Of a stretch of DNA of 40,616 nucleotides, positions 100 through 33,118 are shown piece by piece (positions within the stretch are counted from its first letter, which is position 1; every line of letters starts with the position of its first letter). Where the stretch lies: positions 1 to 40,616 of the IMG/VR virus record IMGVR_UViG_3300045988_105999; one strand, given 5' to 3'. Source of the stretch: a virus. A model generated the notes under the pieces. The model was not told the origin of the DNA. It was given only the letters and a program-made list of their open reading frames with translations, and did no database searches. The translations under genes and the position numbers were made by a program.

Positions 100-248
100 A
101 AAATGTCACACAATTATGCAAGGAAGTTGGAATTGCACAAAGCACATATGCAACATGGTTAAGGGACGACAGGATTCCACGATCTGATAAGATTCAGTTG
201 TTTGCAGAATATTTTGGCGTTGATGCGACAAGAAAACTGTTTTTGTGA
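51..248 (+). CDS. XRE/Cro-CI type HTH regulator, 65 aa, C-terminus looks cut short
   Basis: ATG 51 follows a GAGGGAAAT RBS. NVTQLCKEVGIAQSTYATWLRDDRIPRSDKIQLFAEYFGV is a typical HTH_3 pattern. The usual family ending is replaced by ATRKLFL-stop. Confidence 0.75.
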   Translation: MNEILLRIEALRKAKKKNVTQLCKEVGIAQSTYATWLRDDRIPRSDKIQLFAEYFGVDATRKLFL

Positions 249-264
249 AAGAGAGGAAGAAGTT

Positions 265-1035
265 ATGAAAAAATATCTTGTTGTGGTTGTTATGGCTTTC
301 TCGGTTATTCTTTGCCCCTCCATGGTATTGGCAGAAGAAACATATACATTTACAGAAGATGAACTTTATGATTACGTGTATGAACAGGTTCACGAAGACC
401 CCGCGGCATACATCACAAAGGAACAACACGCTCGCATACTAGCTATCTTCGCCAAGCGCACACGGAGCACCAAGCGAAAAAAAGTATATCTGTTCGCAGG
501 GCTTATCAAATGCCCTGTATGCGGAAGAACTATGGTGAGCTGTACCATGAACAAGAAAACTCTTGGCTACCGATGCAGACACCATTACACATACCATTGC
601 ACATTTATCCACACCATAACCGAAGAACGCATAGAAAGCTTTCTCCTTGAAAATATAGGCTCGATGCTTGAGCAATACCTGATTTCATACAAAGAACAGA
701 ACAAAGCGAAAAAAAAGCCTGACCCCCGGAAGTTGGAGGACAGGCTCTCTCGATTAAACAACATATACATGATGGGCAACATCTCTGACAGTGAGTACAC
801 GAAAAAGGCAAACGAAATAACGGCTCAAATTGCCGCTATAAAGTGTGCAAACAGCAACGACCTTCCAATCCCCGAAGAGTCCATAAAACTCCTGTCAGAC
901 AAGCGATTTGCCACCTTGTACGCTGACTTGCCACGGGAAAGCCGCAAGGCTCTGTGGATGAGTCTCATTGATTCAATCGAGGTTGAGGGGCTTTACCCGA
1001 AGCAAGTCTTTTTTATCGGTCAGGAAAGCCTCTAA
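265..1035 (+). pseudogene. Large serine recombinase C-terminal remnant (zinc ribbon + coiled coil) fused in frame to a signal-peptide-like leader; catalytic resolvase domain absent
   Basis: ATG 265 follows a GAAAGAGAGG RBS. Leader is MKKYLVVVVMAFSVILCPSMVLA. Then come YLFAGLIKCPVCGRTM..GYRCRHH..YHC (recombinase Zn-ribbon pattern) and LSRLNNIYMMGNISDSEY. No N-terminal Ser-catalytic domain is found anywhere in the window. Confidence 0.6.
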
Positions 1036-1070
1036 CGTACATGACAGTTCTGTTACGTAGATTAGAGGCT
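1027..1070. terminator. Long inverted repeat between convergent genes (possible bidirectional terminator or RNA-end hairpin)
   Basis: AGCCTCTAA (1027-1035) pairs with TTAGAGGCT (1062-1070), with inner CGTA/TACG pairs. Both convergent stop codons lie inside the stem. No U-run. Confidence 0.35.
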
Positions 1071-4000
1071 ATGAAGTCCGAGCTGTGGTTTTCTTACGTA
1101 TCTTTGCCGTCTTGCTCTTGAAACTGGAATCAATAGGGGAATCCCAGTCTTTCAGATTGACAGCACTCACTTTGCCACTATTGGACAGTGCGTCCTTTAC
1201 ATAGCTTTCCCATGACGGCATGTTGGTCTTCTTGGTGGAGGTAGAAGCACTTCCAGAACGTCCGGAACGACGACGACCACTTCTACCATAGCCGCCCCTA
1301 CCTCTGCCAGAGCTGACTTTGTCCAGCTTGACGAAGCCAAGGTAGTTCGGGATACGTCCGTAAGGATTCTTTGCAGAAGATCCCTTGAGGTATTCAAACA
1401 GGCAGGCTTTTTCTGCATTGGACGAAAGCCCCAGACTGTTTATGTAATTCACGAGTTCCTTTTTGTTCAGCTTGCCGTTGCCGTCTTCGTCGCACTGGTA
1501 AACAGACATAAACTTATGCTCCGTCAAAGACTTAAAGGTGTATCCGAAATTTTTCAATCCCACTCCCATGTTGGCTTTCTGTTCACTCAACCCAAGTGCA
1601 CGGTATGTACGCTCCTTGATGTTAAAACCTGCGGCGGAAACAGCTTTGTTCGCAGTGGATGTTGAAACTCCCGCCTTGTTTATGCCGGATGCGATATTAC
1701 ATGAGGCATTAGTGAATTCTTTTCTGTTGCCGCCAGAGTTGAGATACTCTTTTGCTGCCTTTACTTTATCTGTATGGATCCCATAAGCTGTAGCCATTTT
1801 ATCGTTTCCGGACAAAGCGACCGCCATTGCCTTGATATAATAATCAGAAGCGTGCGATCTAGCAATCAGTTTCTCCTTCTGAATGTAAAAGTTGACAAAC
1901 TCTTTATCCGTACCGCCAAGCATTTTGTTTGCTCTGCGTGCTTCTTTGTCGTTTTCTTCATTCTTCGCGATACGATTTGCGGCAAACTTCGCTCCGTAAG
2001 TTTTCAGGTCAGCGCAGGTCTGTCCGATCCAATGAGAGCTGTTCACTTCGGACGATTTCATTTCCCACGTCATGTTTTTGTACGATTTAGCATCAATCAT
2101 AGTCTTTATGACACTCGCCTGCTGTCTCCGGCTTTCTTTTCCGAATTTATATGCTTCATCATAGGTCATGCGTTTGCCGTTGCCGAGATCATAGCTTGGA
2201 TTCCCGGTGAAGTTGTAATAGAAATACTTTTTGTCGTCGCCATCCTCCATATGATTGTAGATAGAAATGATTTCCTTGTCCATTTTTGTGAACTTGATTT
2301 CTTTTGTGGTGGACGGGTTTACAAACGAATGCAACGCCCGAACAACAATGTTGTTCCCAGTCTCCACGTCATTTCCGAATCTATCCACTTTCGGGTTGAG
2401 CAACTCATTTCTAAGCACCGGGACACGGTTTATCATTTTTCGCCGCCACGAATCCCACGACCGAATAAGAGGGTCTTCCTTGGTAGAACGTGTATCCCTT
2501 ACCTTACTGTCAAGTGTGCCAGCTAACTGTGAGGATACCTGCGGTACAAAACCATTAAGATACCCCTGCGGTACAGACCCGAAGAGAGCCTGAAAGGCTG
2601 CGCTGCTCCAGTCAGCTTCGCCGTTGCCCTGATGATAGGCTTGGTCCATGAACGTTTCTATTGTGTCTTTCGGGCCGGACATGAACGACATATCCATCAT
2701 CGGTCCCGTCGCTGCCATCAGTCCGTCCCAGATATCCATAGGCTGAAAACCATCGCCGGTCAATGTTTCCCATGTCTGCGCCCCCATAAAGAACGAAGTC
2801 TGCATCGGTGCTAACCAGTCAATGGTCATGGAATACTCCTTGCCATTCCACAAGTGAATGTTCAGTGAGTAGTCCTGATACCCCATATCCCGGTCATAAT
2901 ATTCATCGCCAGAAACATTTCCTACCTTTACGGTAACAAGTCCGCACTCTGCCATTAATGCGCCTAGTCCAAAAATACCTGTTCCCGTAAGCCCGGTAGC
3001 AAGGTCATGAAGTCCCTGCTTGAACAGCTCTGGATCAGTCTGTTTCCATAACTTCGTAGTAGCTATGACAATCGAAGCAGGGGAAAAATCAATACTTCTC
3101 CTGAATACATTTACCGGCGTTTTTACAAACGGAATAGCATATTCTAATACAGTGTTAGCAATTCTGTATCCTGCCGTTCCGATACCAGTTTTGCCCTTTG
3201 CGCCTTCGGTCTTCTGCTTCAATCCGGTAAGCCACGAACTGAACTTTGTCGTGTCTCTAAAAGTTGCGTATTCCGCCTTAGCGAGAGCGTAATTTCTTGC
3301 CTCGTTTTTCTGCTCCGCTGTCAGATTTTTAATATCCCATCCCTTGGATTCACACTTCCGCACGTAGTTCTTTCTGAACTCTGGTTTGAAGACCAGCATA
3401 TCTTCCTTTTCCAGAAGTTTATAGTTGGCATTTACCAGCTTGCGTAATGCTTTCCATTCGACTGCAGTTACACCTTCCGGTCGTGTAGATTCAATATACC
3501 TATTGACACTTCCGGCATTGTCGTACGCTTCTTTAAATTCGCTGTCCAAGAGTTCCTTGTTCTCTTTGATTGCCCTATGGTTCACCTTTACCATGTCAAC
3601 TTTGCCACCCAGTTTTTTGATGTGGCTTTTTGCAATTTTGTTCATGATAATTTCCAACCCATCGGCCGCGCTTCTAACTGCTTTGAAGGCATAGTTTCCA
3701 ACAATATTCCTCTCATGTGTTTTCAGGTTTCCGAGCATGGACAGATGTCTGATTTCATTGAACTTCTCAAACAGTGTTGCTGGTATCTGTTCCCAGATTT
3801 CCCTGCCGATTTCATCCATCACATCCGCGACTTCATCATCGCTCGCATTAAGGATGCGCTGCACTTGGTCTTCTGTCAGCTTCAGTTTACCGTCTTTCAT
3901 CCTGCCGCCGTACCTGCTGTTCAGTCGGTCGATGTCTTTCAGAGCCATCCGTATTTTTCCTTCTGGCGTAGTTTTAACCAGCAGCTTTGCCGCGTTGAGT

Positions 4001-7000
4001 GCACGACCGCTGAAAGATGCCAGCTCGTTAGCTTTCTCCAGTACGTTCATCATCTGTTCTGCGGCAGCCTTATCCCCAGCCTCAAAACGTCTGGAAAGTT
4101 CTTCTGACAGTGCCCGGGCTCTTGCGAAAGCAACATGAGCATCTTTATCCGGCAGTCCATTCAGCATATCAGTGTCAAGGAAGTTTTTGTAGCACCGCAT
4201 GAAATCGTCCGTGATTTCTCTTTCTACGTATGCTTTGGCATCTGCCTGTGTGTATCCTTTTGCCTTGTTGAACACGCCATCCGCAGCCTTTTCATCAAAG
4301 ATGGTTTCCAGCTCCTCTTTTCCTTCAACGAAAAGTTTTCTGGCCTTAGTGGCATTACGTCCCATCTCACCATCAGAAGCTACTTTGCGAACGTCTTTCA
4401 TAATATCAGATACCGGCGGATTTTCTTTCTTTATCTGTTCCCCGGCAGTCTTTGCCATAACGACTTTGTCAGCATTGTCGTAAGCTGCCTTAGACTCTGC
4501 CATCCAGTTTTCCTGTGCTTTTGGATCTTTTTCGATTTTAGCTATGGTCTCTCTCTGCACCTTGGATACAGGCGTGTTCTCTACCATATCCATAGCCTTC
4601 TGCGGGCTTGTTCCCATCTTCTGCAGCTGATCCAGAATATCATCATCTGTGAAGCCGTTTTTCCGCATGGAGTCAATGTGACGCACGATTGCTTCATCGT
4701 TGGCTTTCACCATCTGCCTTGCTTCTTCGGATTTTGCAATCGGTTCAGCAGATTTTACATTATATGCCCCTGCGTCGATTGCTTCATTGAAGTTTTTAAC
4801 AGTGGCATCTGATACTTCTTTACCCACACGTTTGCTGATATACGCTTCGTTTGCCGGAACTTTTTCTCCGAGAATATCTGTATACCCATTACGCAGCCGT
4901 TCATCAAGAAGCAGCTCGATTCTCTTTGAAACAGCATTGTCAGCCTTAGAACCGCCTTCTATAATGTCATTTAGCCCTTTTTCAATCTGCTTATAACTAT
5001 ACTTGTACTCGTCACGCAGGAATGCTATATCGTCGGTAGTCATTCTGGAAGTACCAAAATATCCGCCGGAGTATCCGTTGTTCTCATTTACAACAGGTGA
5101 AAAAGTCTTTTCGCCTTTCACACTCTCATTAAGGTCTCTAAGCATTATCCTTGCTTCGTCCTGAATGTGTTCCTTTAATTCCGGGTTTTCATTCGCGATA
5201 GCTTTAACATTCCTTTTCGAAACATCCTTCATGGTTCTCTTAGGTGCAGGAGCACTCGCTCCGGAACGTTCCTTTACTGCATTATAGTTATCCAGAAGCT
5301 GTACCGCTTCATCAAACTGTGCCGGTGTTAAATCATCAAATGACTTCGCATTAAAGTAATTCAGAATGTCTTCCTGCGAAACGGCTCTCGTTGTAGCCGG
5401 AACGTCTTCTGCTTTCAAGTTTGCAATACGTTCCGCATTGTTTGCGTCACGCTTTGCTACGTCTGCCGCTGTGAGAGACTTCACTTCTGGCAGGGCTGTA
5501 AACGGTTTTTCCTGCTTTGCCCGAAGTTCGTCTACCGCTCTCTGTCCGGCTCTTTCAGCTACCGTGTTTCTTGCCTGTGCTACAGCTCTTTGCAGAAACT
5601 TTGACTCTGCTGGAGTCAGCTCAATTCCAGATTTCTGTTTTGCCAGAATTTTGACGGTCTTCTGCATATCCTTGGATGCCAGCTTGCTTACAGCTTTTGT
5701 TCCAATATCCAATCCGCCGCCGACCACGAGGTCCATCCCTGTATTCATTCCAAAAGTCTTTGCAGCTTCGCCCCAGTGCACCTTGCCGTTATCATCCGTC
5801 GCTGTTTTGATTGCATCGGAAGCGTTGAGCGGGGACGATATAGTCGCATCCGCCACACGACCCGCCACAAACCGTTTAAACGCCGTTGTGCCGTTCTTTT
5901 CTGCGGTTTTGGCAGCATTCTTCGATGCGGTGGAAATCATCGCTCTAGTCGCATCGTCAAGCTCTCCACGTACAAGCTTCTTTGCCGTGCCCTTACCAGT
6001 TACTTTCAGTCCGGTCTTTGCACCGTTCTTTACCAATGCCTTTGAAGTCTGCTTTGCTCCCATCTTTTTCAGCACTGCTTTTGCTACGCCAGATTCTCCG
6101 GCACCCAGTCCGCCGCCGATGAAGAATGAGCCAACCTGTCCGCCCATATACCCGGCTTTATACGCCTTGGAATTTTTCGACTTCTGGTTCTGGTACTTTT
6201 CTGCATTCGTGTATGTTCCTGAGCCCATTCTATCAAGCTCGATCGGAAGTAGATTCATACCCTCCATAGCACCATGTGCAGCTTTTCCTTTGTGCAACGC
6301 CGCAGTATTCAAACTACCTACTGTCTTGGCAAGATACTTTCCTAGTGCCGCATTCTTCGCTTTAGTACTAGGCATACGCTCAGCGTTCTGCAGGCGCAGA
6401 TACTCGTCACTGGTAAGATTGCGGTATTTCAACCTATTCGGCAGTGCCTTGTCGATTTTCTTGTCGATGCTCTTCTTTGCATACGGCATGACCTGCTTGA
6501 TAACCTGTTTTTTCTGTGCTTCCGAAAGATTGCCGTATTTATCCTTTTTGCTCAGCTCCTTATTGATTTCGCTGTATGTTGCTGCATAGGCGGCGGCTTT
6601 TGTCAATCCCCTCTGCATGCCGTTATTCGTCTTGTAGGATTTGGTCTTGACCTTTGCACCGAGAGCGTCTATCTTTTTCGCCTTTGCTACAGCTTGCTTA
6701 CCGTCAGCACGCAATTTATCACGCCAAGTAGACACCTTCTTTTTCTGCGCTGCAACCTGCGTCTTCTTATTTCGCATCTTGGTAAGCTGTAAAGATGCCT
6801 GCGCCACTTTCTGTGCCGCCTGACGCTTTCTTTTTTTTTCCTCTGCAGCTTTTGCTGCTGCATTCTGCAAAGCTCTTACTGTAGCCTGTGCAGCCTTGGC
6901 AGCATCAGCAGACGCAGAAGTTTTCTTCTTCGTGTTCTTTGGGTTTACCCGCTTCGCTGCTTTCTTGGTCTGTTTTGCAACACGCCGGACAAGAGAGCCG

Positions 7001-7035
7001 ATAGAAGCAAACGACGTTTTCTTTTTCTTAGCCAT
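1069..7035 (-). CDS. Giant 1,988-aa protein of unknown function (candidate packaged ejection/pilot or polyvalent protein)
   Basis: Uninterrupted 5,967-nt ORF. ATG 7035 follows a GAGAGGGG RBS. Lys/Ala-rich N-terminus, Gly-rich hydrophobic segments, EF-hand loop, RGG tail. Last gene of the late block. Confidence 0.85.
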   Translation of the reverse strand: MAKKKKTSFASIGSLVRRVAKQTKKAAKRVNPKNTKKKTSASADAAKAAQATVRALQNAAAKAAEEKKRKRQAAQKVAQASLQLTKMRNKKTQVAAQKKKVSTWRDKLRADGKQAVAKAKKIDALGAKVKTKSYKTNNGMQRGLTKAAAYAATYSEINKELSKKDKYGNLSEAQKKQVIKQVMPYAKKSIDKKIDKALPNRLKYRNLTSDEYLRLQNAERMPSTKAKNAALGKYLAKTVGSLNTAALHKGKAAHGAMEGMNLLPIELDRMGSGTYTNAEKYQNQKSKNSKAYKAGYMGGQVGSFFIGGGLGAGESGVAKAVLKKMGAKQTSKALVKNGAKTGLKVTGKGTAKKLVRGELDDATRAMISTASKNAAKTAEKNGTTAFKRFVAGRVADATISSPLNASDAIKTATDDNGKVHWGEAAKTFGMNTGMDLVVGGGLDIGTKAVSKLASKDMQKTVKILAKQKSGIELTPAESKFLQRAVAQARNTVAERAGQRAVDELRAKQEKPFTALPEVKSLTAADVAKRDANNAERIANLKAEDVPATTRAVSQEDILNYFNAKSFDDLTPAQFDEAVQLLDNYNAVKERSGASAPAPKRTMKDVSKRNVKAIANENPELKEHIQDEARIMLRDLNESVKGEKTFSPVVNENNGYSGGYFGTSRMTTDDIAFLRDEYKYSYKQIEKGLNDIIEGGSKADNAVSKRIELLLDERLRNGYTDILGEKVPANEAYISKRVGKEVSDATVKNFNEAIDAGAYNVKSAEPIAKSEEARQMVKANDEAIVRHIDSMRKNGFTDDDILDQLQKMGTSPQKAMDMVENTPVSKVQRETIAKIEKDPKAQENWMAESKAAYDNADKVVMAKTAGEQIKKENPPVSDIMKDVRKVASDGEMGRNATKARKLFVEGKEELETIFDEKAADGVFNKAKGYTQADAKAYVEREITDDFMRCYKNFLDTDMLNGLPDKDAHVAFARARALSEELSRRFEAGDKAAAEQMMNVLEKANELASFSGRALNAAKLLVKTTPEGKIRMALKDIDRLNSRYGGRMKDGKLKLTEDQVQRILNASDDEVADVMDEIGREIWEQIPATLFEKFNEIRHLSMLGNLKTHERNIVGNYAFKAVRSAADGLEIIMNKIAKSHIKKLGGKVDMVKVNHRAIKENKELLDSEFKEAYDNAGSVNRYIESTRPEGVTAVEWKALRKLVNANYKLLEKEDMLVFKPEFRKNYVRKCESKGWDIKNLTAEQKNEARNYALAKAEYATFRDTTKFSSWLTGLKQKTEGAKGKTGIGTAGYRIANTVLEYAIPFVKTPVNVFRRSIDFSPASIVIATTKLWKQTDPELFKQGLHDLATGLTGTGIFGLGALMAECGLVTVKVGNVSGDEYYDRDMGYQDYSLNIHLWNGKEYSMTIDWLAPMQTSFFMGAQTWETLTGDGFQPMDIWDGLMAATGPMMDMSFMSGPKDTIETFMDQAYHQGNGEADWSSAAFQALFGSVPQGYLNGFVPQVSSQLAGTLDSKVRDTRSTKEDPLIRSWDSWRRKMINRVPVLRNELLNPKVDRFGNDVETGNNIVVRALHSFVNPSTTKEIKFTKMDKEIISIYNHMEDGDDKKYFYYNFTGNPSYDLGNGKRMTYDEAYKFGKESRRQQASVIKTMIDAKSYKNMTWEMKSSEVNSSHWIGQTCADLKTYGAKFAANRIAKNEENDKEARRANKMLGGTDKEFVNFYIQKEKLIARSHASDYYIKAMAVALSGNDKMATAYGIHTDKVKAAKEYLNSGGNRKEFTNASCNIASGINKAGVSTSTANKAVSAAGFNIKERTYRALGLSEQKANMGVGLKNFGYTFKSLTEHKFMSVYQCDEDGNGKLNKKELVNYINSLGLSSNAEKACLFEYLKGSSAKNPYGRIPNYLGFVKLDKVSSGRGRGGYGRSGRRRSGRSGSASTSTKKTNMPSWESYVKDALSNSGKVSAVNLKDWDSPIDSSFKSKTAKIRKKTTARTS
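1456..1491 (-). other. Canonical EF-hand type Ca-binding loop within the giant ORF
   Basis: GAC GAA GAC GGC AAC GGC AAG CTG AAC AAA AAG GAA encodes DEDGNGKLNKKE, which fits D-x-[DNS]-x-[DNS]-G-x-[ILV]-x-x-x-E. Confidence 0.5.
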
Positions 7036-7048
7036 GATTTACCCCTCT

Positions 7049-7618
7049 CTAATAGCCTTTTGCATATGTGGTAAGGTAATTGATTCGAGCCTGAATGATT
7101 GCCCTTTCCTGGTCTGTTGTTGCAGAACTGTAAGCTCTCTGCAAAGAGCCTGTGTCATAATAAGCACCATACTTCGCCTGCAAAAGGTCAAGAGCAGCAG
7201 CTTTATTGTCCGCCTGCTGGTTCTGTGCGAGCTGTCTATCCTCGGCTTCTCTCTGTTCAATGTAATTGATTTTCGCCTGATCCGTTGTCTGCTTATAGTT
7301 GAAAAGGTTATCCGCCGCCTGTGCATCAATGTCCTGCAGTGCTCTGGACTTTTCCTTGTTCATGTCGTTTCTGTTGTTCTCGTAGTTTGTTGCAAGCTTT
7401 AAATGAGACGTCTCTGTTGCCCCGCCTCGGATACCGGATTTCTTGAGATTCTCATTCAGATTTTTCTCATTCTGCATCCGGGAAATGTACGCTTCTTTCA
7501 GCTTTGAATTATAATCTTCCGTGGTCTGCTGTTTCTTTTTCGCAGTATCCTCTTCATTCTTTTTCCTGTACTCATCGTACAGATTGTCATATCTTTTTAA
7601 CTCGGTTTCGTATGCCAT
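7049..7618 (-). CDS. Hypothetical coiled-coil protein, 189 aa
   Basis: ATG 7618 has a GGAGGATAAC RBS; the track ORF extends to 7708 without an RBS. Asn/Gln/Lys-rich. Only 13 nt upstream of the giant ORF. Confidence 0.75.
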   Translation of the reverse strand: MAYETELKRYDNLYDEYRKKNEEDTAKKKQQTTEDYNSKLKEAYISRMQNEKNLNENLKKSGIRGGATETSHLKLATNYENNRNDMNKEKSRALQDIDAQAADNLFNYKQTTDQAKINYIEQREAEDRQLAQNQQADNKAAALDLLQAKYGAYYDTGSLQRAYSSATTDQERAIIQARINYLTTYAKGY

Positions 7619-7673: not shown

Positions 7674-7967
7674 TTATTGAGAAGCTCGCTTCCTCTCATA
7701 GGTTTCAATTTTATGTTTTACGTCCTGCTTATACTTGTACGCATCTGCAAGTTCTCCGTTTGGTTTCTTCCCGTAAAGGGTACAGTCAACAAGCTCCTTT
7801 GTGACGCAGAACACGGCGTTGAGTGCCTCAAGGGTAAGTTCCTCCCTTTCTTCTGTTGCCGCGTGTCTCTGCTCTACTTTCTTCTGCTGATGTGTGACTA
7901 CAAGCATTGTCAGACCGGAGAGAATCGACGGGACCGCGGCTATGATGATTGCCTGAATAGTTGTCAT
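7674..7967 (-). CDS. Membrane-anchored protein, 97 aa (lysis-associated by position)
   Basis: AGGAGGAATC RBS. N-terminal TM helix IIIAAVPSILSGLTMLVV followed by a charged helical region. Directly downstream of the endolysin. Confidence 0.7.
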   Translation of the reverse strand: MTTIQAIIIAAVPSILSGLTMLVVTHQQKKVEQRHAATEEREELTLEALNAVFCVTKELVDCTLYGKKPNGELADAYKYKQDVKHKIETYERKRASQ

Positions 7968-10194: not shown

Positions 10195-10617
10195 TTATTC
10201 CTCCGGTTCTATGTAATAAAGATTTCCTGTTGTTGCATCGTATTCAAAAGTACCGACTTTCCCTGACGGTCCTTGCGGTCCGGCAGGTCCTTGTATTCCC
10301 TGCACGCCTTGCTCTCCCTGTGGACCGGTTGCTCCTGTGTCACCCTTTTCTCCCTGAATGCCTTGTATCCCTTGGATGCCCTGTTCGCCTTGGATTCCTT
10401 GTTTGCCTTCGTCTCCCTTGTCACCCTTTGCGCCTTTCAGTGATGCAAGCCACGCTTCTTCGTCTCCGACAAAGCCGTTTCTCACAGCAACTTCATACGC
10501 AGATGCTCCGTCGATACCAGGCGGTCCCTGCTTACCCTGCGAAGACTCTTTCAGTTTGTCGATAGCCTTTGCCAGTTCCGGTATGGATGCGTTATAGTCT
10601 TTTCTGTTTAGCTTCAT
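10195..10617 (-). CDS. Collagen-like (G-X-Y repeat) fibre protein, 140 aa
   Basis: ATG 10617 follows a GAGGAGTG RBS (the track start 10659 overlaps the upstream gene). 19 uninterrupted G-X-Y triplets plus a shorter GKQGPPGIDG run. Confidence 0.8.
   Translation of the reverse strand: MKLNRKDYNASIPELAKAIDKLKESSQGKQGPPGIDGASAYEVAVRNGFVGDEEAWLASLKGAKGDKGDEGKQGIQGEQGIQGIQGIQGEKGDTGATGPQGEQGVQGIQGPAGPQGPSGKVGTFEYDATTGNLYYIEPEE
10261..10434 (-). repeat. Coding G-X-Y triplet repeat (19 units)
   Basis: GAKGDKGDEGKQGIQGEQGIQGIQGIQGEKGDTGATGPQGEQGVQGIQGPAGPQGPSG. Confidence 0.9.
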
Positions 10618-10621
10618 ACCA

Positions 10622-12640
10622 TCACTCCTCATAGAACAGGAAGCCTGTGTCCGACTCATAGATCAGATTCAGCGAGTTAACATCATGTCCGGAAACATAC
10701 AGATTGCTGTCTCTATCCATGAGAAGCGTGTACGTTTCAACCTCATTATTGATACGATTCTTAGAGTAGTTCCCGATAGTGTACAACTTGACCACTTCCT
10801 GAACACCAAAGCTTTCATTGAGCAGGTCATTTTTGATGATGAACTGCAGCCGCTTATACTTCTTGAATTTCTTCTTGATGTAGAAGTCCTGCGGCAGGTC
10901 CGTATTCGTACCGGCAATCGCACCGATATATACAGGCTTGTTTTCGTCCGCTCGGATATAAACCTCTGCCGAGGTGTTCGCAATGCTTCTGTCAATTGAC
11001 TGTATCGTCACCAGACAGCCTTTTTTCTGCATATTCTTAAAGTAGTGCGTCACGCCATCATTGTCCAAGATAGTTGTCCAGTGAGATTCTATCGGCATTC
11101 CATCATCATTGAACGCTTCGCTTCCGAACTCTGCGATGGACTTGAATCGGCAGAGTTTCCCGTCAGCTGTACCGAACCACAGCTCTTCGTTATGCACGCA
11201 AAATGCCGTTGCCGGTACATTCTCCCAGTAGTAACACTCATACTGCAAATTGGAACGCTGTGTTTCCCACGAGTTCTTCTGCGTGCCGTCCATGATGTAG
11301 CAATGGTCATTCACGCATAAAATATAAAAGCGATCCCATACTACCGACACGGAGTCTTTCAGGTTCGCTTCTTCTAAAAGTTTCTTATTGATATAGTAGC
11401 TTCGGTTCTGGACCGTAGCTGTTGCAAAGTAGTTTCCGCTCTCCGAAGACATCACCGCCGATATGCCGTATAATCCGTCCTCTGACAGGAAAATCTGCTC
11501 CCCATTGAGTGAGTTAAAGGACTTCTTAGAAATCGCTCCTACGCCCGTTATAGACTGTCTCACAGCATATGTGGAGTTTTCATCAAATGTCAGCGAGTAC
11601 GCCAGAAATACTGTACTGCTTTCCGGGTTCGATTCTTTGATAATACCGAGGTACTCTCCAAGGTCAATCAGTCCCATAACTGACGTAAAATCGTCTCCGA
11701 CTACAAAATAGCTTAAGTCCGGGAAATACGATGCGTCTTCATACGCAGAGTACCAAACATAGGACTTATACGTCCCCGATGCTCCAGACAGGAAAATCCG
11801 GCTGTTGTAAACCGATGCTACCGTACACTGTCGGAGCTGTTCTGCAGCAGGGCTTGTTCCCGTAGCGGTATACTCTATGATGATATTGTCTTCCCCGGTC
11901 ACTACAGGTGGCTTAGCCGCAGAAAATGTGATTTTCCCAGTCGCATAATCCACGGTGTACCCAGATCCCTTTGTCAGCGTCTCATAATCGCCGGAGCTAT
12001 TTTTTACCTTTACGGTCTCCGTACCGCTGACAATCGGCGTAGATGTGTAAAACTCCTTGGATTCTGCGTCTCCCAGAAACATTTCTTTTCGTTTCCGGGT
12101 AAGAAGATTCACATTTTCATACACTGTACCGCCGCCGGATGATGTTCTACCGATCAGTGTTGTTGGCACATACGGCTGCACTTCCTTGAAGTAAAACTGC
12201 TTTGCACCATCCACAGTCTTAAACGTGTACTCACGGAGAACATTGTCAGCCAGAATGTAGAACGCACCGCCAGATATAGCATTAAAGAAAAATCCCACAA
12301 CATCCGAAGCTGGATCACTCAATGTAATAAGTGCCGCTGTGTTATCTGCGAGCCCATTGTAGATGCCGTTTCCCTTTGCATACAGAATGTGAGATTGTCC
12401 GCCATAGTCAAACGACCACATTTCACGGATCTTCGCCTTCTGTTCTGCGTCTAAAGGATTGTATTCAACCTTCCATCCGGTACGCTTGTACGGTACTCCG
12501 CCATCATCCGGGAGCATGTTCAGTGCGTCAGGGCTCCTTCTCTTGAAAACCTTTGTTGGATCAGTGGTGAAATCTATGCCCTTAAAGTTCGAGTATACCG
12601 ATGTATAAACTTTCGGCTCGCTCGGTGTCTGTATTGGCAT
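10622..12640 (-). CDS. Large tail structural protein, 672 aa (nozzle/tail body, by position)
   Basis: 2-kb ORF between the putative adaptor and the fibre genes. GGGGGG RBS. No enzymatic motif seen. Confidence 0.5.
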   Translation of the reverse strand: MPIQTPSEPKVYTSVYSNFKGIDFTTDPTKVFKRRSPDALNMLPDDGGVPYKRTGWKVEYNPLDAEQKAKIREMWSFDYGGQSHILYAKGNGIYNGLADNTAALITLSDPASDVVGFFFNAISGGAFYILADNVLREYTFKTVDGAKQFYFKEVQPYVPTTLIGRTSSGGGTVYENVNLLTRKRKEMFLGDAESKEFYTSTPIVSGTETVKVKNSSGDYETLTKGSGYTVDYATGKITFSAAKPPVVTGEDNIIIEYTATGTSPAAEQLRQCTVASVYNSRIFLSGASGTYKSYVWYSAYEDASYFPDLSYFVVGDDFTSVMGLIDLGEYLGIIKESNPESSTVFLAYSLTFDENSTYAVRQSITGVGAISKKSFNSLNGEQIFLSEDGLYGISAVMSSESGNYFATATVQNRSYYINKKLLEEANLKDSVSVVWDRFYILCVNDHCYIMDGTQKNSWETQRSNLQYECYYWENVPATAFCVHNEELWFGTADGKLCRFKSIAEFGSEAFNDDGMPIESHWTTILDNDGVTHYFKNMQKKGCLVTIQSIDRSIANTSAEVYIRADENKPVYIGAIAGTNTDLPQDFYIKKKFKKYKRLQFIIKNDLLNESFGVQEVVKLYTIGNYSKNRINNEVETYTLLMDRDSNLYVSGHDVNSLNLIYESDTGFLFYEE

Positions 12641-17291: not shown

Positions 17292-17566
17292 TTGATTTCC
17301 TCCTGTCCATTGTCTGTGCCGTCATATCGGTCTATATTGGCTAAAACAGAGTTGATTTTTCTAATTTCTGCTTCCTGTTCGGTCCTCTGCTTCTTCTCTG
17401 CCTTAGTCTCCCTGTGCTTTATCTTGGGAGCATCTACAAAAGCAGGCACTTCCTCTTTTTCCTCAACTAATGCCAGTTTCACGCCGTATGCGATGAATTT
17501 AACCACAAAAAACGGTAAAATCATCAGATACACAACGCAAATTGTCAGCAAAATATCAAATAACAT
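17288..17566 (-). CDS. Small membrane protein, 92 aa
   Basis: N-terminal hydrophobic segment ILLTICVVYLMILPFFVVKFIAYGV followed by a Lys/Glu-rich tail. Wedged between terL and portal, overlapping both. Confidence 0.55.
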   Translation of the reverse strand: MLFDILLTICVVYLMILPFFVVKFIAYGVKLALVEEKEEVPAFVDAPKIKHRETKAEKKQRTEQEAEIRKINSVLANIDRYDGTDNGQEEIK

Positions 17567-19055
17567 GGATCTTATCTCCTTTTCCTATAGATTTTGCCTT
17601 GTTTATCCTTTTCGGGATGTTGAAATCACCCCTCCGTGCCTGCCTCATGGTCTGCCGGAAGGTACGTTTATGAATGAGCCTTGCGAGTGCCTGCGACATA
17701 CTGTCAACCATATCGTCATGTGCTCCGCTAGGAAATGAGGCGCACTGGTCCATAAACTCCCATGTGAACTTCTTATCCCTCGGCAGATACACGCATCCGG
17801 CTTCGATCGCGAAGGAAACATGATTAACACGAGCCTCCTTACTCGCATCCGGCTGAACCGCTATAATTCCGGTCAACTGGTCCCTAAGAGTTTGTATAAT
17901 TCCGGTACCGTTTGCCTTATCTTCTATCAAAATGGCTGTAATCTGCGGATATTTCGCCTTTACAAGCTTGATTTTTCTTACGGTGTTCGGGAAATCCAGA
18001 TGCACATTGTAGCAATCTATGAGGTAATACCGGTTTGCCTTCTTCCCCCAGACTTCGATCGCTACATAGTCGTTTTTCGCCTGATCCTTAAAGGCAGCAT
18101 CCACGGACATTATCATATTGTCCATTTTTAGCGTGCCGTTCTCAAAGTCGCTGTAGTCGTAATACTGCCACCACTCACGCTTGAGCATATTACCTTCTTT
18201 TGCGGTAGGTCTGCCCTGATACAGTGCATTCCACGACCGGATACCCTCCTCCGTCATGTGAGCCTTCTTGAAATCTGCCAGCCAAGCGTTATCCTTGCCG
18301 ATTTCCGGGCAAAGCGCATCCCCCGGTTTTCTGCCTAAAGGATCGTCTTCTTCTGCCTCGCACGGCAGGTTGATAACCGTTGTTCTATCGGCGTACCTGT
18401 CCATGAGTCGCCCTGCAAGATCGTCTTCATGCCACCTAGTCATGATCAGAATGACTTTCCCGCCGGCAGAAATACGGGACTCGATAGAGTCGATATAATC
18501 GCTCCACTTCTTGTTTCTGTCCGTCTCGGAGTCGGCTTCGACTCTGTTCTTGACCGGGTCGTCTATGATTATCAGGTCAGCCGGGTTACCAGTAAGACCG
18601 GATCCATAGCCTGCACTTATCATCACGCCGCTATGGTTCGCAATTCTAAACTCCTGTGCATTGGCTTTCTTTGGGTCCAGTTTGACACCGAAGACTTTCC
18701 CATAAGTCTTCACCTTGTCCAGATTCTGCTTGCCGAATCTCTGTGCAAGGCTATCTCCGTAGGAAACCGCAATGACTTTCTTGTCTGGGTTCCGCATCAG
18801 ATACCACGAAGGAAGCGTCGCCGTTATGGTTGTCGATTTACCATGCTGCGGCGGAGTATTGAGAATCAGTATCTCATATGCCTTCTCCGTTGGCTTTTCG
18901 ATGAACTCCTGCGCTTTTTCACACAGGAATTTATGAAATTTACTCGGGACCCATAAAAGCTCATTTTCGCTCCTGCCGTCGTTATGAACGTGGTAGCAAT
19001 AGAACTTGTAATTCGCCTGCACGTTTTGTAAATACACATCCTGTGCTGTCAACAT
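17556..19055 (-). CDS. terL: Terminase large subunit, 499 aa
   Basis: Walker A-like PPQHGKST, Walker B LIIIDDP, coupling motif MTRWHEDDL, and a C-terminal nuclease region (VDAAFKD, HDDMVDS). ATG 19055 chosen because the longer track ORF overlaps the upstream gene. Confidence 0.9.
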   Translation of the reverse strand: MLTAQDVYLQNVQANYKFYCYHVHNDGRSENELLWVPSKFHKFLCEKAQEFIEKPTEKAYEILILNTPPQHGKSTTITATLPSWYLMRNPDKKVIAVSYGDSLAQRFGKQNLDKVKTYGKVFGVKLDPKKANAQEFRIANHSGVMISAGYGSGLTGNPADLIIIDDPVKNRVEADSETDRNKKWSDYIDSIESRISAGGKVILIMTRWHEDDLAGRLMDRYADRTTVINLPCEAEEDDPLGRKPGDALCPEIGKDNAWLADFKKAHMTEEGIRSWNALYQGRPTAKEGNMLKREWWQYYDYSDFENGTLKMDNMIMSVDAAFKDQAKNDYVAIEVWGKKANRYYLIDCYNVHLDFPNTVRKIKLVKAKYPQITAILIEDKANGTGIIQTLRDQLTGIIAVQPDASKEARVNHVSFAIEAGCVYLPRDKKFTWEFMDQCASFPSGAHDDMVDSMSQALARLIHKRTFRQTMRQARRGDFNIPKRINKAKSIGKGDKIHVI

Positions 19056-19059
19056 GATT

Positions 19060-19416
19060 TTACATACACCCCGCTTTTTCAAAAGCAGTGAAAATCTTTG
19101 GTAGCTGAATTGCCAGCCAGTCAACCATTTCTTCGTGTCTTGCCCATCCACAGGAAGGAACGCTTGAAGAATCGGACAAGCCGCTTTCATTCAGGAAAGC
19201 ATGTATCAACTCATGTCTCAACGTTTTCTTCCTGTATGTCTCCTGTTCGTTTTTATCCATATGCCTAAAGTATTTTTCCTCTGACATATCAGCAACTACG
19301 ATCAGTTTACCTTCTTCCGCGCAGTAGCCAGCGAGTCGTCCTTCTTCCAACGCGGAATCCTCTGATACCTTGTGCGTTTCAATCGTATATTCTGTTCCCA
19401 AGACATCCACTTTCAT
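19060..19416 (-). CDS. Small HExxH zinc metallopeptidase, ImmA/IrrE (DUF955)-like, 118 aa
   Basis: GGAGGTTATGAC RBS. GYCAEEGKLIVVADMSEE...RKKTLRHELIHAFLNESG fits the ImmA/IrrE pattern (G....k.I.in......r.TL.HEL.H). Confidence 0.55.
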   Translation of the reverse strand: MKVDVLGTEYTIETHKVSEDSALEEGRLAGYCAEEGKLIVVADMSEEKYFRHMDKNEQETYRKKTLRHELIHAFLNESGLSDSSSVPSCGWARHEEMVDWLAIQLPKIFTAFEKAGCM

Positions 19417-19441: not shown

Positions 19442-19517
19442 TGGAGCTCCGCACGGGATTTGAACCCATATCTCCAGATTACAAAACTGGCATTCTCCCT
19501 GATTGAACTAGCAGAGC
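19442..19517 (-). tRNA. tRNA-Thr (anticodon UGU), CCA encoded
   Basis: Hand fold of the minus strand: GCUCUGC-UA-GUUC-AAUCAGGGA-GAAU-G-CCAGU-UUUGUAA-UCUGG-AGAU-AUGGG-UUCAAAU-CCCGU-GCGGAGC-U-CCA. 76 nt. One U-U at 31:39. Confidence 0.8.
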
Positions 19518-19575
19518 AAATTACAGGGATGGCAACTAGTATTCAGCGGCTGTCCGCCACTGGCTATCCCCGATC

Positions 19576-19649
19576 AGGTGACGGGTGGACTCGAACCACC
19601 GCCCTGATGAGTTTTCACTCATCCTCTCTTCCAACTGAGCTACGCCACC
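19576..19649 (-). tRNA. Atypical tRNA, GAA (Phe-like) anticodon context, 8-nt (or 6-nt) anticodon loop, no encoded CCA
   Basis: GGUGGCG-UA-GCUC-AGUUGGAA-GAGA-G-GAUGA-GUGAAAAC-UCAUC-AGGGC-GGUGG-UUCGAGU-CCACC-CGUCACC-U. All arms are canonical except the anticodon loop length. Confidence 0.65.
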
Positions 19650-19866
19650 ATATTGCCTCGGTTTCGAGGTAATTAAAAAAGAGCCCTTGCTGGACCCTTT
19701 TTATATTTTGAAAAATTTTTTCCGTGCGTCAGAATTTGATGCACCTTTTTCTGGGGGTTACTTACGTGTGTGGTGCCCCCCACACCAATATTCCACTGAT
19801 AGCCCGGTCGCTCTGGGACACCGCCTTCCATTATATATAGTAAGAAGTGGTAGGCGGATCAAACCG

Positions 19867-19933
19867 CCTTCCTTCCTTTTCTTTTTTTTCTTCCTGCTCC
19901 CTCTCTGTATGTGGCGGGGTGGGGTGGGGTGGG
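19867..19933 (+). other. 40-nt polypyrimidine tract followed by a G-quadruplex-type motif
   Basis: 19867-19906 is C/T with one purine. 19916-19933 reads GGGG-T-GGGG-T-GGGG-T-GGG. Lies in the ORF-free gap between terS and the tRNAs. Confidence 0.7.
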
Positions 19934-20175
19934 TACCAGTTCTCGCCCCTGCGTGTTGTATGATTATGCAGTGGGTTAGGTGAAAACCCCGGGTTTTAAC
20001 CTATATTTCATACATCCCATTGTATAACTATGCGTGCATCATACCCGCTTCATCGGCTGTCCCCGTTGCAATCACTGCGTTTGAAGCGGTTCGAGTCATT
20101 TTCCCTTTAGAATATCTCAACTATGCCGATAATTTACATTAAGGGAATAGTTGCCCTCTTTCCTACATTATAAGG

Positions 20176-20835
20176 CTATTTCAGTAAGTCTATAGCCCTC
20201 TTTGCCTGTTCTGCACTGGCTATGACTAGGTTGTTAGTGACCTGCTGCGGTTGGCTGTCCTCCTGCCATCCGTGGACGGCTTTCAGAGAGAAGATGTCCC
20301 CCACTCGACCTTTGGAGTATAGCCGTTCCTCGGTCTGTTCCTCCACCCGCAAGACGGCTTTTTGCAACGCCTCCGAAAACATGATAAGCAGTATTTTCCG
20401 CCCTTCGTCGTCTGTAACTGTAGGAATGGCGCCGCCGTTGGCGTCGTCTAGCAGTTCATTAGGTATACTGTGTAGGTCTATGTATTGGAAGAGTAGGTGG
20501 TCATAGTCCCCGCCGATCATTTCGTACCAGGTGGATTTGCTGACCCCTGCCGCCCGGATCATTCCCGCGATTGTCAGCGGCTTGCTTTCTGCTGTCTGTT
20601 CGTCTATGTAGTCGTTTAGTCGCTGCATGATCCCGGTCAGGTCTTCCTGCTTGTACTTCCTCCCTTTGCGTCTCTTTTCTGCGATCTCTTTGTAACGCGC
20701 TACGTTCTCCGACTCTCTCCGGCTGATTTCTGCCAATTCTGCGCCGTTCCTGGGCTGTCCTGGTGTCCTGTTCCCTTTTTTGTGGGCGTTCGGCCCGTTG
20801 TCTTTGCTGCCCCTGTCCCATTGATTGATCGCCAC
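20176..20835 (-). CDS. terS: Terminase small subunit, 219 aa
   Basis: GTG start after GGAAAGGGGG. Central PLTIAGMIRAAGVSKSTWYEM HTH is typical of P27-type small terminases. First gene of the late block. Confidence 0.7.
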   Translation of the reverse strand: MAINQWDRGSKDNGPNAHKKGNRTPGQPRNGAELAEISRRESENVARYKEIAEKRRKGRKYKQEDLTGIMQRLNDYIDEQTAESKPLTIAGMIRAAGVSKSTWYEMIGGDYDHLLFQYIDLHSIPNELLDDANGGAIPTVTDDEGRKILLIMFSEALQKAVLRVEEQTEERLYSKGRVGDIFSLKAVHGWQEDSQPQQVTNNLVIASAEQAKRAIDLLK

Positions 20836-32204: not shown

Positions 32205-32468
32205 CTAAACATCTAATATTTTCCCGATCCGAGTTCTTTCATTTCTTCCCTCAGATACCCTGCCAACTATCAGTCCTTCGGCATAGCCTTTGCTATATCC
32301 TTTTAATTCCGAGAACTTATCCACGCCATCCACTAACTGTGAGAGACTGTCCAGCCCTCGCTGGTCAATGATGAAAGAATTTGGTCCTTTGGTTTTGTAC
32401 CAAACCTTTTCATCAAACATAATCACCTCGTCGATTTCCATTACAAACTTATCACCTTTTTTATACAT
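32205..32468 (-). CDS. Hypothetical protein, 87 aa
   Basis: GGAGGTGGAGTA RBS with TAATG overlap. Confidence 0.65.
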   Translation of the reverse strand: MYKKGDKFVMEIDEVIMFDEKVWYKTKGPNSFIIDQRGLDSLSQLVDGVDKFSELKGYSKGYAEGLIVGRVSEGRNERTRIGKILDV

Positions 32469-33118
32469 TACTCCACCTCCACAAATTCACCGTTCTTTAA
32501 CGTATAGAACGTATCTGCCTTGATTTTTTCGCCGTCAACTTTGGCGGATTCTACATGTTTAATGTGCCAATCATGCGCTTCATCCTGATACCATTCAGCC
32601 AAAACAATATAGCACCCAAGGGATCCTTTAGCTCTGCTCTCAACGCCTGTTGCGATTGCAACAGATTCTTTTCCCTCAACCACAGCCGCACTCTGGTATC
32701 CGGTGTTGGTAGCCGCACTCCGGTGTCCGGTGTTGGTAGCCGCGCTCCGGTCTCCGGTGTTGGTAGCCGCGCTCTGGTGTCCGGTGTTGGTCTCTTTTGC
32801 ATTTGCCCAGTCAATTTTGTCCATAATGAACTTCACGCCCGCTTCGACGATCCCTTTGATTCCGATTTCCACACCAATGCGAATCTTTTTGCTGCACCGT
32901 TTGCTATCATCCCTTAATTCCGGGCTCACTTCATCCATTTCCACCTCGCAATAGCGGCTGCTCGCTGGTTCGTAGTAATTAAACACGTCCAACGGGTTTA
33001 CGCAAGCATGAAACCCACAGCTACACAAATCCGCTTTCGTCTCTTCATACTCCTTGCCTACTTCATACTGAAAATCTCTGCATTTCAACTCTTTGTCGAA
33101 TCCTTTATATGCTTTCAT
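32468..33118 (-). CDS. Conserved phage protein (recalled as DUF7666-like) with an internal 9-aa tandem repeat, 216 aa
   Basis: N-terminus MKAYKGFDKELKCRDFQYEVGKEYEE...LCSCGFHACVNPLDVFNYY. Centre TNTGHQSAA-TNTGDRSAA-TNTGHRSAA-TNTGYQSAA. Confidence 0.6.
   Translation of the reverse strand: MKAYKGFDKELKCRDFQYEVGKEYEETKADLCSCGFHACVNPLDVFNYYEPASSRYCEVEMDEVSPELRDDSKRCSKKIRIGVEIGIKGIVEAGVKFIMDKIDWANAKETNTGHQSAATNTGDRSAATNTGHRSAATNTGYQSAAVVEGKESVAIATGVESRAKGSLGCYIVLAEWYQDEAHDWHIKHVESAKVDGEKIKADTFYTLKNGEFVEVE
32684..32791. repeat. 4 x 27-bp tandem repeat (coding)
   Basis: Units at 32684, 32711, 32738 and 32765, consensus agccgcRctcYggtNtccggtgttggt, with 1-3 differences between units. Confidence 0.9.

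Follow-up and report, generated by a model that had tools for sequence, protein, structure and literature searches.

A putative non-decoding tRNA mimic with a predicted closed anticodon arm upstream of the large terminase gene of a gut phage

The window analyzed here is the whole 40,616-nucleotide (nt) stretch of IMG/VR record IMGVR_UViG_3300045988_105999, a temperate tailed-phage genome from metagenomes that belongs to a gut phage. Upstream of the large terminase gene (terL), its minus strand carries a 74-nt tRNA-like gene, here called the element, whose anticodon loop has 8 nt. Relative to a tRNA-Phe, the change of C32 to G and one inserted base would allow this loop to zip up, giving a 7-bp stem capped by GAAA, with the acceptor, D arm, and T arm left intact. 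The element is one of a group of phage tRNA-like genes, all of which stand first after a promoter-like motif, keep an intact "top half," have a remodeled anticodon arm, and encode no CCA. On balance, and with confidence slightly better than even, we favor the reading that it is a selected, non-decoding tRNA mimic.

RESULTS

The element is a cloverleaf whose anticodon arm is predicted to be closed

ARAGORN reported "tRNA-??? anticodon (gaaa)" at 19576-19649(-), that is, a tRNA with a 4-base anticodon. The Rfam tRNA model RF00005 scored the element at 47.8 bits (E = 2.5e-07 for the whole window; gathering score, 29) with an alignment that forces an insertion into the anticodon loop, and the minimum free energy (MFE) fold of the complete 74-nt molecule computed with RNAfold is a cloverleaf. 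Its acceptor stem, GGUGGCG/CGUCACC, includes one G-U pair; the D-loop contains GG, and the D-stem carries a G10-A25 mismatch. The anticodon stem GAUGA/UCAUC encloses the 8-nt loop GUGAAAAC, the variable loop is AGGGC, and the T arm is GGUGG-UUCGAGU-CCACC. The window allele has U as its discriminator and GAUC after it, and it thus lacks an encoded CCA. Read from the sequence, the canonical cloverleaf features U8, A14, G15-C48, G18G19, and U54U55C56/A58 are all present. A canonical anticodon arm, with a 7-nt loop held open, a non-Watson-Crick 32-38 combination, U33, and a purine at position 37, is not.

A preliminary description, made from the letters of the window alone, had proposed this cloverleaf, and the sequence agrees with it in each detail (acceptor, GG D-loop, 5-nt variable loop, and T arm). 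Its 8-nt loop is borne out by the sequence, by the 4-base anticodon that the suggested ARAGORN run returned, and by the Rfam insertion. The lack of an encoded CCA also held, as did the canonical, CCA-encoding neighbor tRNA-Thr(UGU), on which ARAGORN and Rfam (58.3 bits) agree. The G10-A25 mismatch of the D-stem had gone unmentioned, and the position of the A4/T4 run needs correction: it had been given as 19610-19613, and a pattern search places the A-run of the loop at 19612-19615.

RNAfold predicts that the isolated 18-nt arm folds into 7 bp plus a GAAA tetraloop at -8.2 kcal/mol, a structure that takes up 92% of the ensemble. Pairing of G32 with C and of U33 with A closes the loop and extends the stem to 7 bp. 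Forcing the loop open costs 5.2 kcal/mol in the element, whereas 116 distinct canonical tRNAs taken from the fetched loci have a median cost of 0, with the 90th percentile at 2.1, and a G32-C38 pair occurs in none of these tRNAs (0/116). By this model, the anticodon arm is predicted to be closed.

The anticodon stem GAUGA/UCAUC equals that of the tRNA-Phe of Bacillus phage pW2, whose loop is CUGAACA. A metagenomic tRNA-Phe(GAA) with the loop CUGAAAA (aligned from locus L093) has a T arm identical to that of the element and an acceptor that differs by 1 base; position 73 is A in the tRNA-Phe relatives and U in the window allele. These similarities indicate that the element is a derivative of a phage tRNA-Phe(GAA), and they support the Phe-like context noted in the preliminary description. 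Because the loop differs from that of tRNA-Phe by C32 to G and one added C, it gains two closing pairs.

The extra base recurs in related loci

Related loci (numbered with the prefix L) were obtained by pattern scans of IMG/VR and metagenomes and by contig look-ups via terS homologues. Tallied with the window, 34 loci carry tRNA-like genes at this position, and 16 of the 34 have the body of the window's gene (W), as five alleles. The 8-nt loop is present in 13 further, independently assembled loci from IMG/VR, ENA, JGI, and Logan assemblies (14 with the window). Each 74-nt copy has an 8-nt loop, namely, GUGAAAAC, GCGAAAAC, or GUGAAGAC, and no copy among the window-type loci has a 7-nt loop. 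A sequencing or homopolymer error was rejected as an explanation, since the same extra base is found in 13 other loci from four assembly sources. The preliminary description had allowed that relatives with a normal 7-nt loop, or a miscall in the A-run, might undo the observation; the 13 further loci keep 8 nt.

Allele W1, with the arm GAUGA-GUGAAAAC-UCAUC, is identical in the window, L087, L091, and L108. Allele W2 (L001, L094, and L111) is like W1 but has UUAUC as its 3' strand, W3 (L002) has the loop GCGAAAAC, and W4 (L107, L109, L110, and L112) has the arm GGUGA-GUGAAGAC-UCAUC. The fifth allele, W-long (L090 and L147), is 94 nt long and has a long hairpin for an arm. The putative 4-base anticodon is GAAA in 10 loci and GAAG in 4, and the long hairpin takes its place in 2; the body is the same in all. 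All four 74-nt alleles keep G34-A35-A36, and three of them have A73.

Sister alleles have other structures in place of the anticodon arm

L090 and L147 are ~93% identical to the window over 7 kb. The leader, acceptor stem, T arm, and trailer of W-long are identical to those of the window and the D arm is different, and a ~15-bp hairpin capped by AGAA stands where the anticodon arm would be. ARAGORN missed W-long, and the Rfam tRNA model still gave 43 bits; the terS protein linked to this allele was read on 5 contigs. No origin of the hairpin was found elsewhere in the fetched loci.

At the same position in more distant relatives, the B-type gene (L003, L096, and L113-L119) has an arm of 7 bp plus UGUA. 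The B-short gene (L123-L132; Rfam, 36 bits) has 3 bp plus GGAA. The C-type gene has a 9-nt loop and lies at 3607-3682 of L139 and at 1199-1274 of L140. ARAGORN calls it tRNA-Arg(tcg); it folds into 5 bp plus the 9-nt loop AUAUCGGAG, is without a real CCA, and heads a four-gene array, before normal tRNA-Gln, tRNA-Trp, and tRNA-Ser genes. Neither the C-type gene itself nor further C and B alleles were found in IMG/VR, where the B-type anchor matched a normal tRNA-Asn instead. A canonical tRNA-Asn(GUU) at 2240-2311 (-) of L150 has its D arm and the start of its anticodon stem in common with B-type (ACACG-CUGUUAA-CGUGU in tRNA-Asn and ACACA-UGUGUACA-UGUGU in B-type), which hints that B-type is derived from tRNA-Asn.

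A custom "top half" scan of all fetched loci recovered W-long and B-short again. The same kind of scan of 80 terL-related IMG/VR loci returned nothing except L003, and the trait therefore appears confined to a sub-lineage. Odd loops were also seen in unrelated metagenomic tRNA arrays: L088 (5821-5912 and about 6900-7000) has a "tRNA-??? (catc)" call and an 82-nt candidate with the 8-nt loop CAUUAGCA, and a 95-nt candidate lies in L038. Genes of this odd-loop kind may therefore be commoner among phage tRNA arrays than the present set of loci shows.

The tRNA body is constrained, and CCA is not encoded

The four 74-nt W alleles vary at five sites, which are arm positions 28, 33, 37, and 41 and the discriminator; the other body positions do not vary (0/55). 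The chance that five random changes over 74 nt would all fall within those 19 positions is about 0.001, and both stem substitutions among the W alleles yield G-U pairs. A comparison of the window with L107 gives 17/201 differing sites in the upstream 200 nt and ~77% identity in terS, against 0/55 differing sites in the body. The acceptor and T stems show covariation when lineages W, B, and C are compared, with 99.1% of cells paired and five pairs changed on both sides, and the covariation score was reached by 0/500 shuffles. CCA is encoded by 0/9 tRNA-like alleles versus 15/20 distinct canonical tRNAs of related phage loci, and every canonical tRNA sharing the slot encodes it. The acceptor/T-arm half is conserved across five different arm architectures, the pattern that would mark a non-decoding tRNA-like RNA. 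Taken at the level of sequence comparison, these data suggest that the body is under selection.

The element occupies a slot between a promoter-like motif and terL

On the minus strand, the putative small terminase gene (terS) is followed by ~520 nt of noncoding DNA, the element, tRNA-Thr, a 118-amino-acid (aa) open reading frame (ORF) with an HExxH motif, terL, and the portal gene (Table 1).

Table 1. Features of the window in and around the slot upstream of terL
Feature	Position	Strand	Basis or remark
terL, large terminase gene	17556..19055	-	Homologues with Terminase_6N and Terminase_6C (Pfam); downstream anchor of the slot
118-aa ORF, HExxH motif (LRHELIHAF)	19060..19416	-	PHROG 1233 (unknown function); no Pfam match; first protein gene past the tRNAs
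Canonical tRNA-Thr(UGU), encoded CCA	19442..19517	-	ARAGORN; Rfam, 58.3 bits; second gene of the cassette
tRNA-like gene, W-type, allele W1, 74 nt	19576..19649	-	ARAGORN, Rfam tRNA model, MFE cloverleaf
Anticodon arm, 18 nt, GAUGAGU-GAAA-ACUCAUC	19606..19623	-	5 bp plus 8-nt loop, or perfect 7 bp plus GNRA tetraloop
8-nt "loop" GUGAAAAC	19611..19618	-	C32 to G and one added C versus tRNA-Phe loop CUGAAAA
Noncoding region, terS to tRNA-like gene	19650..20175	-	C-rich tract, purine-rich tract, block GTGGAATATTGG
Small leader hairpin CCUCG-AAAC-CGAGG	19656..19669	-	6 nt before G1; in alignment consensus structure
Hairpin GGGUCCAGCAAGGGCUC plus U6, terminator- or attenuator-like	19675..19697	-	Sequence; in consensus structure of W-type alignment
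A/T-rich motif AAAAAATTTTTCAAAATATAAAAAGG (..AAATTTTTCAAAATATAAAAAGG)	19696..19721	-	Promoter-like; conserved in alignment
terS, putative small terminase gene	20176..20835	-	PHROG 606 terminase small subunit, E = 2.6e-06; weak Pfam GP3_package match

In every relative compared for the motif, the A/T-rich motif sits right before whichever gene comes first on the way to terL, be it a tRNA, a tRNA-like gene, or an ORF. It abuts the ribosome-binding site (RBS) and ATG of the first ORF in tRNA-free phages (L097-L106, L133-L135, L142, and L143) and abuts ordinary tRNAs in L144-L146 (Ser-GCU and Tyr-GUA). It precedes a lone tRNA-like gene in some loci and a tRNA-like gene followed by tRNA-Thr in the window, L091, L108, L090, and L147. 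An ordinary tRNA (Gln or Leu) also lies immediately before terL in L007, L008, L027, and L031. We take the motif for a probable promoter component and the slot for a site from which accessory RNA cargo would be expressed. The 3' boundary of the tRNA-like gene is precisely where relatives cease to be homologous, as would be expected of a cassette. The hairpin GGGUCCAGCAAGGGCUC stands between the motif and the tRNA-like gene in W-type loci only.

Blocks of the noncoding region are kept in L003, L097, L123, and L133 despite terS being only 54-66% identical, and they are also kept in phages without a tRNA-like gene. This region (19650-20175) further contains the C-rich tract CCACCCCACCCCACCCCGCC, which is G-quadruplex capable on the plus strand, the hairpin GGCGGUUUGAUCCGCC, and the blocks GGUGUCCCAG...GUGGAAUAUUGGUGUGGGGGG. 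Possible roles for the region are those of a packaging site or of a leader RNA for the late operon. Where tRNA or tRNA-like genes directly precede terL, a structured spacer of ~130 to 150 nt ends in a GC hairpin and a U-run before the terL RBS (L001, 3446-3585; L003, 901-1053; L123, 3673-3817; L144, 3744-3890; example, CACCACCAAAAGGUGGUUUUUUAAUAGGAG). The window lacks this spacer, which may act as a terminator, as an attenuator, or to stabilize the 5' end. As for the other genes of the slot, ACA, the codon matching tRNA-Thr(UGU), is the top Thr codon of the window (250/689), and the presence or absence of the 118-aa ORF in relatives is independent of the tRNA-like gene.

The window has no close relatives among GenBank cultured phages, in which only generic tRNA similarity of 78-81% was found. 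A recombinase zinc-ribbon ORF (Zn_ribbon_recom) at 202-1035 (+) resembles the C-terminal portion of a large serine recombinase, with the N terminus lying outside the ORF. This suggests that the window starts near or within an integrase gene, and the phage is considered temperate because of this fragment. The replication genes of the window include Sak, YqaJ, DnaB, and SSB. Just downstream of the lysis genes, a 1988-aa ORF at 1069-7035 (-) with a Lys/Ala-rich N terminus and an Arg/Gly/Ser-rich C terminus may be an internal virion or tape-measure-like protein. A 154-aa protein with collagen-like G-X-Y repeats is encoded at 10195-10659 (-) beside tail-fiber genes, and a DUF7666 protein with four tandem TNTGxxSAA-type repeats is encoded at 32468-33118 (-).

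DISCUSSION

The favored reading and its weak points

If the element is a selected, non-decoding tRNA mimic, it would be transcribed first in the packaging/late unit and excised by host RNase P and RNase Z, with CCA perhaps added afterward. It would then act through its acceptor/T-arm/elbow surface without reading codons. Within this reading, the role to which we tentatively give first place, at a probability short of even, is that of a trans-acting decoy or effector. Such an RNA could sequester, as a decoy or sponge, a host factor that binds tRNA (for example, a tRNA-directed defense nuclease, a toxin, or a tRNA-processing enzyme), and its inability to decode would make it harmless to translation. 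A trans-acting decoy is favored because the element is accessory and mosaic, because its arm diversifies while its body is frozen, and because relatives without the element evidently need no processing signal. Of the possibilities raised in the preliminary description, "decoy/processing element" fits the evidence best, and a decaying pseudogene is disfavored.

A bolder extension, which we consider improbable at present, is that tRNA decoys with a disabled anticodon form an undescribed class of RNA counter-defense. Decoys made from real tRNAs (Phe and possibly Asn) would keep the surface recognized by nucleases, toxins, and processing enzymes, sealed or replaced arms would block entry into translation or cleavage, and the diversity of arms would reflect an arms race.

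Several observations weigh against the favored reading. The 200 nt upstream of the element are 91-96% conserved, and a recent whole-block exchange may contribute to the conservation of the element. The retained GAA and, in three alleles, A73 may leave recognition by phenylalanyl-tRNA synthetase (PheRS) possible. The tetraloop is not strictly conserved, because the L002 allele breaks the U-A closing pair (U33 to C) and the L107-type allele has the non-GNRA loop GAAG for GAAA. The C-type 9-nt loop is open (free energy cost of opening [ddG], 0), and B-short has a decay-like G1-A72 mismatch. Pfam, PHROGs, and PADLOC identified no defense- or tRNA-related partner proteins nearby. Modifications and the ribosome give real anticodon loops their shape, and the case made here consists of sequence comparison and thermodynamic prediction.

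Alternative explanations

The alternative that survives best is nested in the non-decoding reading: the element would serve purely in cis, its tRNA shape being kept for RNase P/Z cutting of the terL leader or for 5' protection, and decoding would have been disabled to render the RNA harmless. The element is always first past the promoter-like motif and on the same strand as terL, and loci with a lone element have a structured spacer and then a hairpin and U-run immediately before the terL RBS. The invariant parts are the recognition features of RNase P and RNase Z only (acceptor, T arm, and elbow), and CCA is lacking, as in RNase Z substrates. L097, L133, and L142 have the motif directly at the RBS, so processing is not required there, and in L144 ordinary tRNAs fill the slot without a tRNA-like gene ahead of them. 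A pure processing signal would also leave the repeated, elaborate remodeling of the arm, including a 15-bp hairpin, unexplained. We regard a purely cis-acting processing or stability role as unlikely, though worth keeping in view.

The element might instead be a working tRNA-Phe whose enlarged loop reads UUY triplets, much as the 8-nt-loop tRNA-Thr of yeast mitochondria reads its own, and which is selected for escaping a host anticodon nuclease. Phage tRNAs whose altered anticodon loops let them evade tRNA-cleaving defenses are on record (PMC11555353), and van den Berg (2023) reportedly describes such tRNAs. The origin from tRNA-Phe, G34-A35-A36 in every 74-nt allele, A73 in three of them, and the intact and constrained body would all suit such a tRNA. 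Against this, the G32-C and U33-A pairs put its open loop at a predicted disadvantage of 5.2 kcal/mol, L002 has C at position 33, and W-long could not place an anticodon at the proper distance. The element also encodes no CCA, which sets it apart from the true tRNAs in these phages, and the window allele has U73. A spare tRNA against defense would be expected to have a decoding-competent 7-nt loop with point changes, whereas the loop here is one of 8 nt with a predicted closed form, and W-long lacks an anticodon loop. A working tRNA-Phe is accordingly given a low probability.

An equally poor prospect is that of a disabled relic or pseudogene without a function of its own, hitchhiking on a block of DNA that was exchanged recently. 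In its favor, conservation of the flanking 200 nt comes close to that of the element, the terminal acceptor pair of B-short is broken, and many relatives lack the element. A pseudogene would be expected to have scattered lesions and a flank-like substitution rate. The five independent lesions (W, W-long, B, B-short, and C) all lie in the anticodon arm, which makes up ~22% of the tRNA, and four of the five lesion types give a stable closed hairpin; B-short, with G1-A72, is the one partial exception to the confinement of lesions to that arm. No slot contains a tRNA decayed elsewhere, and the contrast between an unchanged body (0/55 among W alleles) and a changed upstream region (17/201 between the window and L107), together with the covarying stems, argues against a relic.

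The least credible of the four is a natural +1 suppressor that decodes UUUC with the anticodon GAAA as Phe, an idea raised in the preliminary description that we found to be very improbable. The 8-nt loop in a U33-GAA-A context, the 4-base anticodon called by ARAGORN, and the conservation of the extra base are what suggested it. Laboratory suppressors such as sufJ carry their insertion in the 3' part of the anticodon loop. In 60 curated genes (11,791 codons) of the window, UUU is followed by C in 24/210 cases (11.4%), compared with 15.0% C overall, a slight shortfall and no strong avoidance. The preliminary description had proposed a search for sites needing a +1 shift; in the window genes, the +1 frames opened at the 24 in-frame UUU-C sites extend for at most 49 codons, and none joins two genes, so no useful +1 frame exists at any of them. 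The 4-base anticodon is GAAG in four loci and gone in W-long, and the prediction is for a closed loop. According to a major review (PMC5009743), no frameshifting role is known for the few natural tRNAs with nonstandard loop sizes, phage ones included, which also argues against a suppressor. The reading of the element as a +1 or quadruplet decoder is thus not supported.

Two candidate +1 shifts in the window were rejected. In the tail-chaperone-like pair at 7674-7708, a terminator follows the first ORF and the next gene has its own RBS and an ATG at 7618. The +1/+1 ORF chain at 35559-33434 consists of three ordinary genes (DnaD-like, helicase loader, and DnaB-like) with internal Met starts.

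Other identities for the element were rejected as well. An antisense regulator like P1 C4 was dismissed since the complement of the arm is no commoner than expected by chance. For an attP or host tRNA copy, the 24-nt 3' half had no tRNA match in 185,579 species genomes, and the serine recombinase fragment (202-1035) lies 18.5 kb from the element. Other Rfam noncoding RNAs, including Y RNA (YrlA), were excluded, as only RF00005 passes its gathering score. A cow-rumen-3 match at 19514-19603 (-), covering the tRNA-like 3' part and the spacer, reached 25.7 bits against a gathering score of 86.7 (E = 0.0037); it was not seen in five related loci and is probably spurious.

Meaning and comparison with known systems

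Phage tRNAs are being reinterpreted as counter-defense against host systems that cut tRNA. If the favored reading is true, selected genes with a kept body and a disabled anticodon would add mimicry beside replacement, and they would offer a compact natural scaffold for studying the tRNA "top half" alone. "tRNA-???" calls with 4- or 2-base anticodons in phages should be compared with relatives before they are read as quadruplet decoders or discarded as errors. The negative result on frameshifting also disposes of an attractive claim, that of natural quadruplet decoding, for which support is lacking. Literature searches for phage tRNA-like genes whose anticodon is disabled returned nothing. In shape the element is like other non-decoding tRNA mimics, namely, tRNA-Other, the tRNA-like domain of YrlA, and phage RNAs processed by RNase P; in context it is like the anti-defense tRNAs of phages.

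The P1/P7 C4 and P4 CI RNAs are phage regulatory RNAs that are processed by RNase P and act by antisense pairing. Like them and like YrlA, which has a tRNA-like domain (PMC4201824), the element would be a small non-decoding RNA that is tRNA-like or processed by RNase P. It differs from C4 and CI in that its arm has no complementary target beyond chance. In YrlA, both ends of the RNA lie in the equivalent of an anticodon stem, which binds Ro, whereas those of the element are at a normal acceptor stem.

We know of no closing pairs across the loop of yeast mitochondrial tRNA-Thr(UAG). Like the element, that tRNA is normal except for its anticodon loop, which has 8 nt and is natural and conserved (PMC3113583), yet it decodes triplets, whereas the element has strong closing pairs and sister alleles without an anticodon. 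The frameshift suppressors sufD, sufA6, and sufJ and engineered quadruplet decoders (PMC9094753) likewise combine a full tRNA body with one extra loop nucleotide. In the phage element, by contrast, the extra base makes G-C and U-A closing pairs, the 4-base anticodon is unconserved, the window has no quadruplet targets, and sister alleles swap the arm for a hairpin.

The tRNA-Other of Bacillus cereus (PMC3399842) is also tRNA shaped, linked to mobile elements, and non-translational, and it is thought to be a regulatory RNA. It is chromosomal and flanks a genomic island, whereas the phage element heads the terminase operon and has undergone several arm remodelings; the two sequences are unrelated. 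The T5 tRNA-Tyr and tRNA-Lys that act against retron PtuAB and PARIS (PMC11555353) are, like the element, accessory phage tRNA cargo with changes concentrated in the anticodon stem-loop. T5-type tRNAs have a 7-nt loop, decode, and replace the cleaved host tRNA, whereas the phage element is probably non-decoding and would hence act as a decoy.

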